Shown here: positions 21,446 to 32,425 of the stretch, one piece after another
Position numbering within the stretch: position 1 is the stretch's first letter
How the letters are laid out: each line of letters opens with the position of its first letter
Source of the DNA: Escherichia phage ECO07P1
Strand: one strand, 5' to 3'
Length of the DNA stretch: 64,000 bases
Sequence record: OP172784
The notes under the pieces: generated by a model
Databases searched by the model: none
What the model saw: only the letters and a program-made list of their open reading frames with translations
Told to the model about the DNA's origin: nothing
Position numbers and translations under genes: made by a program

Positions 21446-21718
21446 ATGAAAACATTTAAAGAATTTATCAATGAAGCTGCTTTTAACGAAAAAGTAAAAA
21501 TTAGCAAAGCTGTCAAGACTATGATTGATAACATCAATTACCTATATGGTATTGATTTAACTGACTATGTAACAGTTGGTAACAAACGTAACTATTTCGT
21601 GTTTGACATCTCTGAACTTGACCAGAATCAAATTAACAACATTGAGCGTTTTGCTAATGATAAGGGTCTTCGTCATGAGTCAGCGGGTTATAAAAAATAC
21701 GCAATTTATTTAAAATGA
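21446..21718 (+). CDS. internal protein with N-terminal capsid-targeting sequence (ipI locus, copy 1)
   Basis: N-terminus MKTFKEFINEA resembles the T4 CTS MKTYQEFIAE with L/I-x-E cleavage site; SD ggaga. Confidence 0.7.
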   Translation: MKTFKEFINEAAFNEKVKISKAVKTMIDNINYLYGIDLTDYVTVGNKRNYFVFDISELDQNQINNIERFANDKGLRHESAGYKKYAIYLK

Positions 21719-21778: not shown

Positions 21779-22087
21779 ATGAAAACATTTAAAGAATTTA
21801 TCAATGAAGCGGCTGCACCAAAGACATTCATTATTTATACTCAAGCGGGTCTTGATGATGAGTATGCGGAAGCAATTCTGAGGTCACTTGCTAAGAACGG
21901 TGTTGAAGTAATTGCTTCGGACTTTAAGAAAGGGGCTTCCGAGATGTTTATTTCTATAACTAAAGGATCTAAAGCTAAAATCAAATCATCATTCGGTGTT
22001 GCTCGTACCGATCAAATCGACAATCATGACTTTAAACAAACTGGTGCTAAACGACAGAATACAATTGCATCACGCGGAATAAAATAG
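21779..22087 (+). CDS. internal protein with CTS (ipI locus, copy 2)
   Basis: N-terminus MKTFKEFINEAAAPK; 102 aa. Confidence 0.7.
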   Translation: MKTFKEFINEAAAPKTFIIYTQAGLDDEYAEAILRSLAKNGVEVIASDFKKGASEMFISITKGSKAKIKSSFGVARTDQIDNHDFKQTGAKRQNTIASRGIK

Positions 22088-23013: not shown

Positions 23014-23086
23014 TGGGAATTAGCCAAGTTGGTAAGGCACTGGATTTTGATTCCAGGATGCAAAGGTTCGAGTCCTTTATTCCCAG
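23014..23086 (+). tRNA. tRNA-Gln (anticodon UUG)
   Basis: Manual cloverleaf: acceptor tgggaat/attccca, anticodon loop ttTTGat, T-loop GTTCGAG. Confidence 0.85.
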
Positions 23087-23087
23087 C

Positions 23088-23174
23088 GCGAGAATGGTCA
23101 AATTGGTAAAGGCACAGCACTTAAAATGCTGCGGAATGATTTCCTTGTGGGTTCGAGTCCCACTTCTCGCACCA
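23088..23174 (+). tRNA. tRNA-Leu (anticodon UAA)
   Basis: Acceptor gcgagaa/ttctcgc, anticodon loop ctTAAaa, long variable arm, encoded CCA. Confidence 0.85.
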
Positions 23175-23179
23175 AATTT

Positions 23180-23253
<74 letters not shown>

Positions 23254-23263
23254 ATTTAATTTA

Positions 23264-23337
23264 CTCCGTGTAGCTCAGTTTGGTAGAGCGTCTGCTTTGG
23301 GAGCAGAATGTCGCAGGTTCAAATCCTGCCGCGGAGA
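23264..23337 (+). tRNA. tRNA-Pro (anticodon UGG)
   Basis: Anticodon stem tctgc/gcaga, loop ttTGGga; T-loop GTTCAAA. Confidence 0.8.
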
Positions 23338-23339
23338 CT

Positions 23340-23429
23340 GGAGGCGTGGCAGAGTGGTTTAATGCACCGGTCTTGAAAACCGGCAGTCGCTCCGGCGACT
23401 CATAGGTTCAAATCCTATCGCCTCCGCCA
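23340..23429 (+). tRNA. tRNA-Ser (anticodon UGA)
   Basis: Acceptor ggaggcg/cgcctcc, loop ctTGAaa, long variable arm, CCA. Confidence 0.85.
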
Positions 23430-23434
23430 GTTTT

Positions 23435-23510
23435 GCTGATTTAGCTTAGTAGGTAGAGCAACTCACTTGTAATGAGAAGGTCGGCGGTTCGATTCCGTCA
23501 ATCAGCACCA
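23435..23510 (+). tRNA. tRNA-Thr (anticodon UGU)
   Basis: Acceptor gctgatt/aatcagc, loop ctTGTaa, T-loop GTTCGAT, CCA. Confidence 0.8.
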
Positions 23511-23511
23511 A

Positions 23512-23586
23512 GGCCCTGTAGCTGGAAGGTTCAAGCAAGCGACTCATAATCGCCAGATGGTGGTTCAATTCCACCCAGGGCCACCA
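23512..23586 (+). tRNA. tRNA with CAU anticodon (Ile2-type or Met; T4 tRNA-Ile has CAU)
   Basis: Acceptor ggccctg/cagggcc, loop ctCATaa, T-arm ggtgg-ttcaatt-ccacc, CCA. Confidence 0.75.
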
Positions 23587-23599
23587 AATTAAGAATTAA

Positions 23600-23686
23600 G
23601 GGGAGTTATCCCGTAGAGGTAGCGGTGTGGACTGTAAATCCATTGTCATTGCGACTCGGGTGGTTCGACTCCATCACTCCCCACCA
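23600..23686 (+). tRNA. tRNA-Tyr (anticodon GUA)
   Basis: Acceptor ggggagt/actcccc, anticodon stem gtgga/tccat, loop ctGTAaa, long variable arm, CCA. Confidence 0.8.
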
Positions 23687-23690
23687 ATTT

Positions 23691-23765
23691 GGATGTGTAG
23701 CTCAATGGCAGAGCGATCGCCTGTTAAGCGATTGGTTATAGGTTCGAATCCTATCACGTCCGCCA
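23691..23765 (+). tRNA. tRNA-Asn (anticodon GUU)
   Basis: Anticodon stem atcgc/gcgat, loop ctGTTaa, T-arm atagg-ttcgaat-cctat, CCA. Confidence 0.8.
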
Positions 23766-23769
23766 AATC

Positions 23770-23845
23770 CGAGGCATAGCTCAGAAGGAAGAGCAAGGAC
23801 CTTCTAAGTCCTAGGTCGTAGGTTCGATCCCTACTGCCTCGACCA
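23770..23845 (+). tRNA. tRNA-Arg (anticodon UCU)
   Basis: Acceptor cgaggca/tgcctcg, anticodon stem aggac/gtcct, loop ctTCTaa, CCA. Confidence 0.85.
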
Positions 23846-24641: not shown

Positions 24642-25205
24642 ATGAAAACTTATGCCGAATTTTTAACCGAAGCAGCAAAATTACCATCTGAAGCAGAACT
24701 TACTAAAGTATTCTTCCAATTGGACCCAAAAGACCGTGGCGATTTTCTTAAGTGGAAAGCTAAAGCTATTGAAATGTATAACATTGATAATAGTTCTTTT
24801 ACGATGAGTCAAGAAAATAAATTCAATAAAGCATTTTTCAAAATTTCTAAGAAACTGGCATCTGGCGCTCAGGTTCCTAAATCTGCCTTAGCTACTCCTG
24901 AACGTGCGCCTGTTAAAATTTCTAAGAATATGTTCGACACTAAAAAATACGTTAATGCTTTGAATAAAGCTCTTGATGCATTGGATGATGCAAAGAAGGC
25001 AGCCCGTGATCTTCAAGACGTGTACATCGATTTTGATCGTAAAACTAAAGGTTCTATTTCAAATAGCGAACGCAATAGTGTAAGCGTTTATTCTGATAGC
25101 CTTGACGTTCTTGGCGATGCGTATACTGAAATTAAAAATCGTATTAACACCGCATCTAAACTAAAAGCTGCCGCAGAAGCTATAATAGCTAAACTAGATA
25201 AATAA
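24642..25205 (+). CDS. 187-aa protein with capsid-targeting sequence (candidate internal protein)
   Basis: N-terminus MKTYAEFLTEAA (CTS-like); lysine-rich helical remainder. Confidence 0.7.
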   Translation: MKTYAEFLTEAAKLPSEAELTKVFFQLDPKDRGDFLKWKAKAIEMYNIDNSSFTMSQENKFNKAFFKISKKLASGAQVPKSALATPERAPVKISKNMFDTKKYVNALNKALDALDDAKKAARDLQDVYIDFDRKTKGSISNSERNSVSVYSDSLDVLGDAYTEIKNRINTASKLKAAAEAIIAKLDK

Positions 25206-27959: not shown

Positions 27960-28444
27960 TTTTAAAAACTCGCTGGTATGATTTAGATGACGGGGATGAT
28001 GGCATTTCAGTTGATAGAGTTGACTGGAATGGCTGTTCCGAAGATATGAAAAATTTGCTGATTAGGGAGTTTAGAATGGGATATCAACCAGTTAAGCCAT
28101 CTACTGCAACAGATGATAAGTTTGTATGTATTCAAAATGGCCGCGCTAAGTTAACGAACGCTGATTGGTTCACAGATAAGAAGGTTATTCTGTGGTATAT
28201 CATTAGTTTTCCTGTGACATCATTTGTATTTTGCTTCTTTGGAGAAAGTCCAGTAGGCAGAACGGGAGATTGGATTCTTTTAACCATACTTGTTAATATT
28301 TTTACAGCAGCAATATTATCTGGGATATGGTACATGTTCATTGAAATGCCATGGCGGTTACGTAGGCAGCAAAAGATTTTTGATGAAAAGAAATATACTC
28401 AAAATTTAAATAACTTTATCACTGAATGCAGGAAATTAAAATGA
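27956..28444 (+). CDS. two-TM membrane protein, family member 3
   Basis: 162 aa from MILKTRWY; C-terminus NNFITECRKLK; ATGA overlap with nudE. Confidence 0.65.
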   Translation: MILKTRWYDLDDGDDGISVDRVDWNGCSEDMKNLLIREFRMGYQPVKPSTATDDKFVCIQNGRAKLTNADWFTDKKVILWYIISFPVTSFVFCFFGESPVGRTGDWILLTILVNIFTAAILSGIWYMFIEMPWRLRRQQKIFDEKKYTQNLNNFITECRKLK

Positions 28445-28881
28445 AAACATTATCAGCTGGTATTATCTTTATGACAGAAGATAAAGATTTATTTATGGGA
28501 CGAGTTACTGGTTCTCGTAAGCCCGGAATGATGGCACATCGCTGGGATATTCCAAAGGGCCGCGTAGAAAGTTTTGATTTGAATGCACTGGAAGCTGCAA
28601 AAAGAGAATGCTCAGAAGAGACTGGTTTTAGCAATTATAATCCAGACCTTCTAGAAGACCTAGGTGTATTTAAATATTCTAGTAATAAAGACTTACAGTT
28701 ATTTTATTATACGATTCCAGTAGAGCATGAGATGTTTAGAAATTGCCATTGCGAGTCTTATTTTGAAAATAAAGATGGCGTTATGATTCCAGAGATGGAT
28801 GCTTTTGCTCTTATTCCTCGTACTCAGTGGCAATATGTGATGGGTCCTTCACTTTACCGAATAATGAACAACCTCTTTTAA
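28441..28881 (+). CDS. nudE: Nudix hydrolase NudE
   Basis: Nudix box (RECSEETGF); immediately upstream of e as in T4. Confidence 0.85.
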   Translation: MKTLSAGIIFMTEDKDLFMGRVTGSRKPGMMAHRWDIPKGRVESFDLNALEAAKRECSEETGFSNYNPDLLEDLGVFKYSSNKDLQLFYYTIPVEHEMFRNCHCESYFENKDGVMIPEMDAFALIPRTQWQYVMGPSLYRIMNNLF

Positions 28882-29684
<803 letters not shown>

Positions 29685-29742: not shown

Positions 29743-30156
29743 ATGACTCGTATCAATTTAACACTTGTTTCTGAACTGACCGACCAACATCTTATGGCTG
29801 AGTATCGTGAATTACCACGCGTATTTGGTGCAGTCCGTAAACATGTTCAAAACGGTAAACGTGTAAAGGATTTTAAAATCTCTCCAACATTTATCTTAGG
29901 CACAGGTCACGTAACATTCTTTTACGACAAACTCGAATTTTTACGTTTACGTCAAATCGAGCTAATCGCTGAATGCTTGAAACGTGGTTTCAAAATCAAG
30001 GACACGACTGTCCAGGATATTTCCGACATCCCTGTCGAATTTCGTAATAATTATGTCCCGTCCGAAGCGTCCATTGCGATAAGTCAAGCTCGCTTAGATG
30101 AAAAAATTGCTCAACGCCCTACTTGGTACAAATACTATGGTAAATCAATTTACTAA
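29743..30156 (+). CDS. denV: endonuclease V (pyrimidine dimer DNA glycosylase)
   Basis: 137 aa; [31 protein letters not shown] matches remembered T4 endo V. Confidence 0.95.
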
Positions 30157-30162
30157 GGAAAA

Positions 30163-30421
30163 ATGAAAATGTATCAAGAATTTATCGCTGAAGCAGATGC
30201 CAAAGGCCCCAAATTTAAAGTTAAAGCTTTCGTTGGTGATGCGGAAGACTTTGGCTCATTAAAACGTAATGGGTATTTTTCCTAGGCGGCGATGGTAGAG
30301 AAATAAACACCTATGCAAAACGTAGTGAATTGCTTATGTTGCTGCAAGTCCTAAAGTAGATGTTGACGATATTGGATACGATTTTAACAACTTCGGAATT
30401 ATTTCTGGCGGTGAAGCTTAA
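30163..30421 (+). pseudogene. decayed CTS-type internal-protein gene (frame broken at least twice)
   Basis: ATG with SD aaggaaaa encodes MKMYQEFIAEADAKGPK..., stop after 40 codons; coding-like sequence continues in two other frames. Confidence 0.4.
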
Positions 30422-30424
30422 ACG

Positions 30425-30455
30425 GTTTACGCTTAAGTATTAATATGGTATAATT
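30425..30455 (+). promoter_or_regulatory. early promoter for ipIII
   Basis: GTTTAC, 18 bp, tGGTATAAT. Confidence 0.6.
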
Positions 30456-30484
30456 ACTCTATCAAAACAAACAAGGAAACAAAA

Positions 30485-31063
30485 ATGAAAACGTATAAAG
30501 AATTTATTGCTGAAGCTTCTGTGGAAAAGGCCAAAGGCATTAATAAGGACGAGTGGAACTATCGTGGTGGAAACGGCTTTGACCCTAAAACTGCTCCACT
30601 TGAACGATATCTAGCCACAAAAGCTTCTGACTTTAAAGCTTTCGCTTGGGAAGGACTTCGCTGGCGTACCGATCTAAATATTGAAGTTGATGGGCTTAAA
30701 TTTGGCCATATTCAAGATGTTGTTGCTAGTAACTTGGATGCAGCTTTTGTTAAAGCTGACGGTGACCTTCGTCGCTGGAATTTAAAACTATTCTCTAAAC
30801 AGAAAGGCCCGGTGTTTGTGCCTAAAGCTGGTAAATGGGTTATTGATAATAAATTAGCTAAGGCTGTCAACTACGCTGGTCTTGAATTCGCCAAGCACAA
30901 ATCATCATGGAAAGGTCTGGATGCAATGGCTTTCCGTAAAGAATTTGCTGATGTTATGGCTAAAGGCGGCTTTAAGGCAGAAATAGATACCTCTAAAGGT
31001 ACGTTTAAGGACGCTAATGTTCAGTACGCTTATGCCGTTGCTAACGCAGCCCGTGGTAATTAA
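30485..31063 (+). CDS. ipIII: internal protein III
   Basis: 192 aa; CTS MKTYKEFIAEA; size as T4 IPIII. Confidence 0.8.
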   Translation: MKTYKEFIAEASVEKAKGINKDEWNYRGGNGFDPKTAPLERYLATKASDFKAFAWEGLRWRTDLNIEVDGLKFGHIQDVVASNLDAAFVKADGDLRRWNLKLFSKQKGPVFVPKAGKWVIDNKLAKAVNYAGLEFAKHKSSWKGLDAMAFRKEFADVMAKGGFKAEIDTSKGTFKDANVQYAYAVANAARGN

Positions 31064-31104: not shown

Positions 31105-31407
31105 ATGAAAACATATCAAGAATTTATTACTGAAGCTCGAGTGAGTGCAGGTAAATTAGAATCCGCTATAAATAAAAAGGCCCATTCATTTCATGATTTG
31201 TCCGATAAAGACCGTAAGAAACTTATAAGCCTTTATATTGACAAAGAGCGTATTCTCGCTCTTCCTGGCGCTAATGAAGGTAAACAGGCCAAGCCTTTGA
31301 ATGCTGTCGAAAAGAAAATTGATAACTTTGCTTCTAAATTCGGTATGTCTATGGATGACCTTCAGCAAGCGGCTATCGAAGCAGCTAAAGTAATTAAAGG
31401 TAAATAA
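31105..31407 (+). CDS. ipII: internal protein II
   Basis: 100 aa; CTS MKTYQEFITEA; size as T4 IPII. Confidence 0.8.
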   Translation: MKTYQEFITEARVSAGKLESAINKKAHSFHDLSDKDRKKLISLYIDKERILALPGANEGKQAKPLNAVEKKIDNFASKFGMSMDDLQQAAIEAAKVIKGK

Positions 31408-31550: not shown

Positions 31551-32090
31551 ATGAGAACATTTTTAACTGGTCCTTATCTATCCCTGATGAATGCTTTTAC
31601 ACACCATTCTGATGCTAGAGTAGAAGAAATTTGTAAGAATGATTATGTCCCACCATTTGAAGACTTACTCAAACAGTATTGCACACTTCGACTAGATGGT
31701 GGACGTCAATCCGGTAAATCAACTGCAGTAACTAATTTTGCCGCTAATTGGTTGTATGATGGCGGAACAGTTATTGTTCTTTCTAATACTTCAGCTTACG
31801 CTAAAATTTCTGCAAATAACATTAAAAAGGAATTTTCGCGTTATTCTAATGATGATATACGTTTTCGTTTATTTACTGATTCTGTCCGTAGTTTTATCGG
31901 TAATAAAGGAAGCAAGTTCAGAGGTTTATCGCTTTCGCGGATTTTGTATATAATCGATGAGCCTGTTAAATCTCCTGATATGGATAAAATTTACGATATT
32001 CATATTGAAACTGTGCACCACTGTTGCAATAGTAAATGCTGCATTGGTGGTATTATTCGTCCACAGTTTTTCATAATCGGAATGCAATGA
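31551..32090 (+). CDS. P-loop NTPase-like protein
   Basis: 179 aa; Walker A-like GGRQSGKST and Walker B-like ILYIIDEP. Confidence 0.6.
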   Translation: MRTFLTGPYLSLMNAFTHHSDARVEEICKNDYVPPFEDLLKQYCTLRLDGGRQSGKSTAVTNFAANWLYDGGTVIVLSNTSAYAKISANNIKKEFSRYSNDDIRFRLFTDSVRSFIGNKGSKFRGLSLSRILYIIDEPVKSPDMDKIYDIHIETVHHCCNSKCCIGGIIRPQFFIIGMQ

Positions 32091-32269
32091 TGACAGACAC
32101 GCAACTTTTCGAATATCTTTATTTTTCGCCAAAAACTGTTAAAAATAAATTGGTGAATCATTTTGAAATTTTGGCAAATAACAACGTCTTGAGCGAATTT
32201 TATCCTAAGCAATACAAATTACAAAAAAGGCGTATTCAAAGGATGCAGAGTTTTGTGCACTGCTCCTAA
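32087..32269 (+). CDS. hypothetical small protein
   Basis: 60 aa from ATG overlapping upstream stop (ATGATGA); weak SD. Confidence 0.4.
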   Translation: MMTDTQLFEYLYFSPKTVKNKLVNHFEILANNNVLSEFYPKQYKLQKRRIQRMQSFVHCS

Positions 32270-32425
32270 TGCAAGATTAATGAATAAAATTCCATATTTT
32301 ACCATGGAATTTATTGATGGGCCTTTTAAAGGACTAATCACGCAGAGTTTAATGGCATATGATTCTGAGCCATTTTTAATTAAAGAACAATCTTGGATAA
32401 ATTTATTTTCTAATTGAGAGGTTAT

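Follow-up and report, generated by a model that had tools for sequence, protein, structure and literature searches.

The internal proteins (Ip) of T-even phages are non-essential proteins that are carried into the prohead by an N-terminal signal and injected with the phage DNA (PMC3012670, PMC12373910). At least ten kinds are known, encoded in two polymorphic loci (PMC3012670, PMC12373910); each of three from T4 (Ip1, Ip2 and Ip3) acts as an inhibitor of a single GmrSD type IV restriction enzyme (PMC12373910). The concept of a capsid-targeting (CTS) leader comes from the same reports (PMC3012670, PMC12373910). In T-even Ip genes, this leader follows the pattern M-K-T-Y-x-E-F-[IL]-x-E, comprises about 10-11 residues and ends in [IL]-x-E, directly before the cleavage site. 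The polymorphism of the Ip genes is said to have been described originally by Repoila et al. in 1994.

The closest described relatives of the gene considered here are annotated Ip genes of RB69-like phages. In RB69, the gene (RB69p125 / RB69ORF125c, NP_861815.1) is located between denV and the next Ip gene and encodes an 86-aa protein named “internal head protein”. IME340 has an intact ortholog in the same place (YP_010066527.1), also annotated “internal head protein” in RefSeq, and in phage 132 the intact gene is Phage132_125. The family is annotated but uncharacterised (a literature search returned no mention of “RB69ORF125c” by name and no proteomic data on RB69ORF125c-type proteins), and the locus has long been known for gene shuffling and loss. 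We analysed the copy of this gene in a 64,000-nt stretch of DNA from Escherichia phage ECO07P1 (record OP172784; referred to in full as “the window”). The phage is an RB69-like T-even coliphage; related records carry the label Mosigvirus or Tequatrovirus, the window and phage 132 are collinear over ~60 kb, and among phage records none identical to the window was found, the best matches having 95-97.5% identity. Our data make us highly confident that positions 30163-30421 of the window contain a genuine pseudogene of an RB69ORF125c-type Ip gene that was inactivated by two single-base deletions.

An RB69ORF125c-type gene spread over three reading frames

A preliminary description had proposed that a CTS-type internal-protein gene of roughly 85 aa, inactivated by at least two frameshifts, lies between denV and ipIII. 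It placed the start at an ATG with a good Shine-Dalgarno sequence, ended the reading frame after 40 codons and noted coding-like sequence in the other two frames up to the ipIII promoter, all of which we confirmed (Table 1). Its two estimates needed only small corrections: RB69, IME340, phage 132 and many other phages do have an intact ortholog in exactly this place, and it encodes 86 aa (261 nt with the stop codon); inactivation was indeed by frameshift, and there are exactly two lesions, both 1-bp deletions. Assignment to the CTS-type internal proteins is supported by the leader (MK(T/M)YQEFIAE), by a match to PHROG 2667 and by the RefSeq annotation of the ortholog.

Table 1. Positions of the pseudogene, its parts and neighbouring features in the window
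Feature	Position	Strand	Description
Intact leader gene	21446-21718		90 aa; leader MKT[YF]xEF[IL]xE
Intact leader gene	21779-22087		102 aa; same leader pattern
tRNA gene cluster	23014-23842		ten tRNA genes
Intact leader gene	24642-25205		187 aa; same leader pattern
nudE	28426-28881	+	
Lysozyme e	28918-29406	+	
ip5-like gene	29403-29684	+	93 aa; intact, same leader pattern
denV	29743-30156	+	stop TAA 30154-30156
Shine-Dalgarno sequence	30155-30161	+	AAGGAAA; overlaps the denV stop; same in intact orthologs
Pseudogene	30163-30421	+	RB69ORF125c / RB69p125 ortholog; original start ATG 30163 to original stop TAA 30419-30421
Leader MKMYQEFIAE	30163-30192	+	predicted prohead-protease (gp21-type) cleavage after Glu10 (I-A-E/A)
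Residual 40-aa ORF MKMYQEFIAEADAKGPKFKVKAFVGDAEDFGSLKRNGYFS	30163-30285	+	codons 1-38 orthologous, then two out-of-frame codons; TAG 30283-30285
Lesion 1	30276-30280	+	1-bp deletion between 30277 and 30278 (GGGTATT^TTTCC), leaving a T5 run; codon 39
Middle segment FLGGDGREINTYAKRSE	30279-30329	+	frame 3 relative to the start; codons 40-56 of the intact protein
Lesion 2	30327-30331	+	one A lost between 30329 and 30330; codon 57
C-terminal segment IAYVAASPKVDVDDIGYDFNNFGIISGGEA	30332-30421	+	frame 2; AYVAASPKVDVDDIGYDFNNFGIISGGEA plus the original stop
Early-type promoter of ipIII-like gene	30426-30454	+	TTTACG, 17 nt, TATAAT, TG upstream; 10/12 positions matched in promoter scan
ipIII-like gene	30485-31063	+	192 aa; intact, same leader pattern
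Ip gene	31105-31407	+	100 aa; intact, same leader pattern
GC-richer segment	31407-31550		~140 nt, between the 100-aa Ip gene and a vs.8-like gene
vs.7-like gene	32087-32417	+	split by +1 in an A run (A5 to A6, 32218-32223); ORFs 32036-32269 and 32253-32417

The 86-aa ortholog of phage 132 aligned with the window by tblastn in three segments, in three frames and in the correct order (E = 1e-33), such that a single protein, rather than several unrelated ones, was matched by all three segments. Judged from the sequence, a coding continuation of this kind through three frames is far beyond chance. Between them, the two lesions divide the coding sequence among all three frames, and alignments with intact orthologs revealed no nonsense mutation inside the three segments. 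The protein reconstructed across the lesions matched the PHROG 2667 profile (“internal head protein”) over residues 1-84 (E = 1.1e-19), and the 40-aa stub alone also matched it (E = 2e-10). By full-length similarity at a syntenic position, the locus belongs to the RB69ORF125c orthologous group (PHROG 2667); it has no intact open reading frame that would make it a functional member, as the two 1-bp deletions bring a stop after codon 40. Compared with RB69ORF125c and its orthologs in IME340 and phage 132, the window copy has the same locus, start, leader, stop and flanking regulatory sequences, but it can encode only a 40-aa stub, whereas the orthologs encode 86 aa. The stub is not conserved elsewhere as an intact short gene: a look-up in 153 billion gene positions found the exact 40-aa product nowhere else on record.

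At the DNA level, the pseudogene is 95-97.5% identical to intact genes at the same locus in at least 165 phage records (megablast). A megablast search with positions 30100-30500 matched 205 phage records, most of which have 2 nt more than the window in the aligned stretch. Match length by itself (403 versus 401 or 404 nt) was rejected as a proxy for intactness, since BGP, JoYop and DCP548 differ in length and have intact genes. More than 200 RB69-like coliphages have the gene in this place, with denV on one side and the ipIII-like gene on the other. The intact protein was found by tblastn in 217 phage records, with at least 80% of its length covered in 214; these include more distant VR7-like phages (~70% identity) and S16/STP4-a-like Salmonella phages (62-67%), all with proteins of 86-87 aa. 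Values of pN/pS among intact orthologs are 0.06-0.68, mostly 0.15-0.4, indicating purifying selection and therefore a real coding gene wherever it is intact.

A cluster of substitutions in the middle segment (CCTAGGCGGCGATGGTAGAGAAATA) might suggest relaxed selection after inactivation. We rejected this reading because the same bases occur in relatives in which the stretch is in frame. The substitutions are common to 236Ecol005PP and Logan contig SRR27143261, and they therefore reflect a haplotype and not decay.

The leader, the locus and the proposed consequence for the phage

The first residues of the pseudogene product conform to the leader motif of T-even Ip genes (MKMYQEFIAE/A, positions 30163-30195, with the slash at the predicted cleavage site). 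A scan for M-K-x-Y/F-x-E-F-[ILV]-x-E identified seven genes in the window, one of which, the pseudogene, is dead. Like T4 IPI, IPII and IPIII (Ip1-3), the RB69ORF125c-type protein has an N-terminal leader of the MKTYQEFIAE type and is small, and its gene, non-essential like theirs, is part of the polymorphic e/denV/ip cluster. Unlike the leaders of T4 Ip1-3, which have Thr at position 3, those of RB69-like alleles have Met; the window has Met, and Thr is present in two orthologs (P0002 and P0006). Beyond the leader there is no similarity to T4 Ip1-3, and other Ip PHROGs match only residues 1-20. The intact protein matched no Pfam family, a sequence search of the PDB returned chance matches only (E above 0.07), and an AlphaFold2 model built from a 5-sequence alignment had low confidence (pLDDT 54, pTM 0.43).

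With the order nudE, e, ip5-like gene, denV, pseudogene, ipIII-like gene and 100-aa Ip gene, the neighbourhood is that of the polymorphic Ip loci (e / denV / ipII / ipIII). Conserved signals for translation and transcription flank the pseudogene. Upstream, its ATG starts 6 nt past the denV stop, and TAAGGAAAAATGAAAATG around the Shine-Dalgarno sequence AAGGAAA is invariant in alignments with intact orthologs; the spacing of AAGGAAA fits a second ATG (30169) better than the first (30163), both being in the same frame. Downstream, the early-type promoter of the ipIII-like gene forms the boundary of the pseudogene. It is kept in all relatives, is invariant in the alignment with them, and in phage Lutter a promoter is annotated at the equivalent place. 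denV and the pseudogene form one transcription unit, with a promoter annotated upstream of denV in relatives and none between the two genes.

By analogy with T4 Ip1-3, the intact 86-aa protein would enter the prohead core, be trimmed by the prohead protease after Glu10 and be injected with the DNA as an accessory protein, packaging and cleavage being predicted from its leader. Once injected, it would probably neutralise a host defence. Neither lesion affects the ribosome-binding site, the start codon or the leader of the window copy. Because these elements are intact and the gene shares a transcription unit with denV, the locus is probably still transcribed and translated into the 40-aa stub (the leader and 30 residues). 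The stub lacks the conserved C-terminal half, which includes VDVDDIGYDFNNFGIISGGEA, and is most likely non-functional. Loss of the gene would be tolerated, as Ip genes can be dispensed with and bring a benefit only where particular host defences are encountered. The many other broken alleles, together with the pN/pS values of intact copies, fit a gene that is accessory and dispensable in the arms race of T-even phages and has been lost repeatedly.

Two single-base deletions and their probable order

At the site of lesion 1, the closest haplotype (Logan SRR27143261, 236Ecol005PP and SF2-1) reads TATTCTTTCC, indicating that a C was lost from TTCTTT; a comparison with IME340 would make the change T6 to T5. 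We saw lesion 1 in no sequence other than the window. No match to it turned up in exact-pattern scans of viral and metagenome contigs, and INPHARED contained no record with the lesion, the best matches being 93% identical and spanning 44 nt against the 43-nt query.

Lesion 2 changed GTGAAATTG to GTGAATTG (GAAATT to GAATT). Alignments and base-by-base comparison revealed the same deletion in Shigella phage SF2-1 (PQ571308.1) and in Logan contig SRR27143261_1885, carriers that came to light through a truncated protein (P0004) and a 36-nt megablast query spanning the lesion. Among 50,697 phage records this query matched only SF2-1, and exact-pattern scans of viral and genome contigs for lesion 2 gave 0 matches. 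The Logan contig has the gene order of the window, yet its identity over 5 kb is only 95%, and it therefore represents a different phage.

The carriers of lesion 2 are not alike in the rest of the gene: the C deletion occurs in the window and a T deletion at ACCTATG in SF2-1, and the Logan contig has no further lesion. Because lesion 2 is common to two other phages that are without lesion 1, it is most probably the earlier of the two. Lesion 2 would thus have come first and inactivated the gene, and lesion 1 would have arisen later in a gene that was already dead. The simplest history is one old inactivating lesion followed by different later lesions in the dead gene. Recombination could blur this order, since SF2-1 has its second lesion in common with a lineage that does not carry lesion 2. 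By itself, lesion 2 destroys the last 30 residues, and the gene would therefore be dead even if lesion 1 were an error. The combination of the two lesions is new and was not found elsewhere; the kind of allele is ordinary.

The SF2-1 allele (L022, positions 363-630) combines lesion 2 with the change of ACCTATG to ACCATG. The same T deletion is otherwise present, without lesion 2, in a lineage represented by ERZ19289331, SRR26926504 and SRR36495837 (L017-L019). Its occurrence with and without lesion 2 points either to recurrent mutation at this site or to recombination between pseudogene alleles.

Broken alleles in other phages

Including that of the window, we identified at least 12 different broken alleles of the gene (nine frameshift types, two in-frame deletions and one denV::ip fusion deletion), and thus at least 11 others. 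Two frameshifts at one spot, a +T in a T run in Lutter (KMC16_gp126/gp125; 43 aa) and a TT deletion in UFV13 (BIZ64_gp126/gp125; 44 aa), were deposited as split ORFs; other broken alleles are on deposit as truncated ORFs. Further frameshift alleles have a G deletion in AATGGGTA (Logan SRR8427994), +AA (FL44 and Pu-Krd-SF7; 61 aa), the T deletion in ACCTATG (the ERZ19289331, SRR26926504 and SRR36495837 lineage, with 8 contigs; 63 aa), a +1 with substitutions (ERZ19211333, a 168-kb contig; 52 aa) and a T deletion in GATGTTGAC that results in a 93-aa read-through (236Ecol005PP). JS09 (JS09_057), TU01 and 172859UKE1 have lost 144 bp in frame between GTCCTAAA direct repeats, with 38 aa left; in an ENA contig, an in-frame deletion of 21 codons leaves 65 aa; and in a 1,657-nt Logan contig (P0011), a deletion fuses DenV residues 1-30 to Ip residues 63-86 in a 54-aa ORF. 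In the deposited alleles of Lutter, UFV13, FL44, Pu-Krd-SF7, 236Ecol005PP, SF2-1 and JS09 the same gene was inactivated by small indels or deletions, and while SF2-1 has exactly lesion 2 of the window, the others carry different lesions. The truncation points of the broken alleles all differ (38, 40, 43, 44, 52, 58, 61, 63, 91 and 93 aa).

Two of these alleles have further features. The P0011 fusion implies that ~0.6 kb was deleted, comprising the greater part of both denV and the Ip gene. The 38-aa mini-gene of JS09 (L011, positions 1001-1117) consists of the leader and the C-terminus. PHROG 35655, with 38 profile positions matching residues 1-31 and 61-86 of the intact protein, appears to have been built from this JS09-type deletion allele.

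The number of broken alleles raises the alternative that loss of the gene is adaptive, and not neutral: the injected protein would be a liability on some hosts, either sensed by a defence or costly where its target is missing, and the gene would behave like a contingency gene. In keeping with this idea, four inactivating events lie within ~10 nt at codons 37-40 (the C deletion of the window, the +T of Lutter, the TT deletion of UFV13 and the G deletion of SRR8427994), and 4/45 close relatives, taken as an evenly spaced sample of the tblastn ranking, are frameshifted, as opposed to 1/29 broken copies of the ip5-like neighbour (at least 98.9% conserved), a difference that is suggestive but not statistically significant. 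Against it, intact copies are under purifying selection, ~90% of relatives retain the gene, and the accumulation of second lesions is what neutral decay predicts. We regard adaptive loss as unlikely, and selected knock-out on some hosts has no more than anecdotal support from the present data.

The same doubt applies to a broader proposal, that RB69ORF125c-type Ip genes are a hotspot of recurrent, possibly selected inactivation whose pseudogene alleles circulate and recombine between phages. Alleles are in fact shared (lesion 2 in three phages, the ACCTATG T deletion in two lineages), and we still consider this proposal improbable. If it were true, the injected protein would be a liability on some hosts, for example as the trigger of a defence system, and phages would toggle the gene off.

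In the reading that we prefer, the locus is a pseudogene of an ordinary kind, within a gene cluster whose high changeability was already known. It offers a small, clean example of how a dispensable accessory gene of the anti-defence type decays step by step in T-even phages, with a shared first lesion, different second lesions and many independent knock-outs in relatives, in agreement with the known plasticity of Ip loci. For annotation, it should be labelled a pseudogene of an RB69ORF125c-type internal-protein gene and not a 40-aa hypothetical protein. By itself the locus raises no new question, and its sole wider point is whether Ip loss is selected on particular hosts.

Sequencing error and residual function

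A pseudogene defined by 1-bp deletions could also be an artefact, the real phage having an intact 86-aa gene and both deletions being errors in A/T-rich tracts. Both lesions do fall within short runs of A or T, neither lesion 1 nor the 40-aa product was seen anywhere else, and a third private homopolymer indel (A5 to A6) breaks a vs.7-like gene 1.9 kb away. Lesion 2, however, is reproduced in independent sequence data: its presence in two other, independently sequenced phages (SF2-1 and Logan SRR27143261) indicates that it was inherited and is not a sequencing error, and from this comparison the caveat of sequencing error appears largely removed for lesion 2. Lesion 1, private to the window and in a T-rich tract, could be an assembly error.

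The rest of the window also argues against an error-prone assembly, as random homopolymer errors would strike long essential genes as well. About 170 other ORFs are intact, including long essential baseplate and replication genes rich in longer homopolymers. Among 178 phage 132 ORFs with a match, frameshifts in the window affect just two real genes (the pseudogene and the vs.7-like gene), and the ~13 other isolated 1-2-bp indels that distinguish the window from phage 132 are all located between genes. Confinement of small indels to intergenic positions is the signature of selection on real mutations and not of random read errors. In addition, broken alleles of the gene occur in very deep assemblies, such as ERZ19211333 NODE_1 (5,586x coverage). 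Together, these results make a sequencing or assembly artefact very improbable as the explanation for the pseudogene.

The vs.7-like gene is a second pseudogene 1.9 kb downstream. It encodes 108 aa in phage 132, and in the window it is split by the private +1 in its A run. The corresponding stretch is 411 nt long in the window as opposed to 408-410 nt, mostly 410, in the relatives listed (30 of 540 matching records).

That the locus is still functional, with the 40-aa peptide as a working short Ip or with ribosomal or transcriptional slippage restoring the full-length protein, we consider very improbable. In its favour, the Shine-Dalgarno sequence, the ATG and the capsid-targeting leader have all been kept, ...GYFFLGGDG would, judged from the sequence, be restored exactly by a -1 slip on U UUU UCC at lesion 1, and short in-frame alleles persist elsewhere (the JS09-type 38-aa form, with its own PHROG 35655, and the 65-aa form). 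Against it, lesion 2 lies at GUG AAU UGC without a slippery context, such that two separate recoding events would be needed, and T5 is too short for efficient transcriptional slippage. The differing truncation points mean that none of the short forms is conserved, the window alone has the 40-aa product, and the surviving in-frame mini-alleles retain the conserved C-terminus that the stub lacks. Programmed frameshifting, plausible at lesion 1 only and not at lesion 2, was rejected.

Other features of the window

Ten tRNA genes are clustered in the window, one of which (23602-23681) is barely above the Rfam threshold (30.2 bits versus 29). A 4-nt insertion relative to phage 132 is located at 23593, just upstream of this tRNA gene.

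The GC-richer segment that follows the 100-aa Ip gene matched nothing in Rfam, and its RNA fold was not unusual (z = +0.28). It is missing in the otherwise collinear phage 132 and is 90-97% conserved in 565 phage records; in JS09, a 45-aa ORF at the equivalent position is annotated as a DenV remnant.
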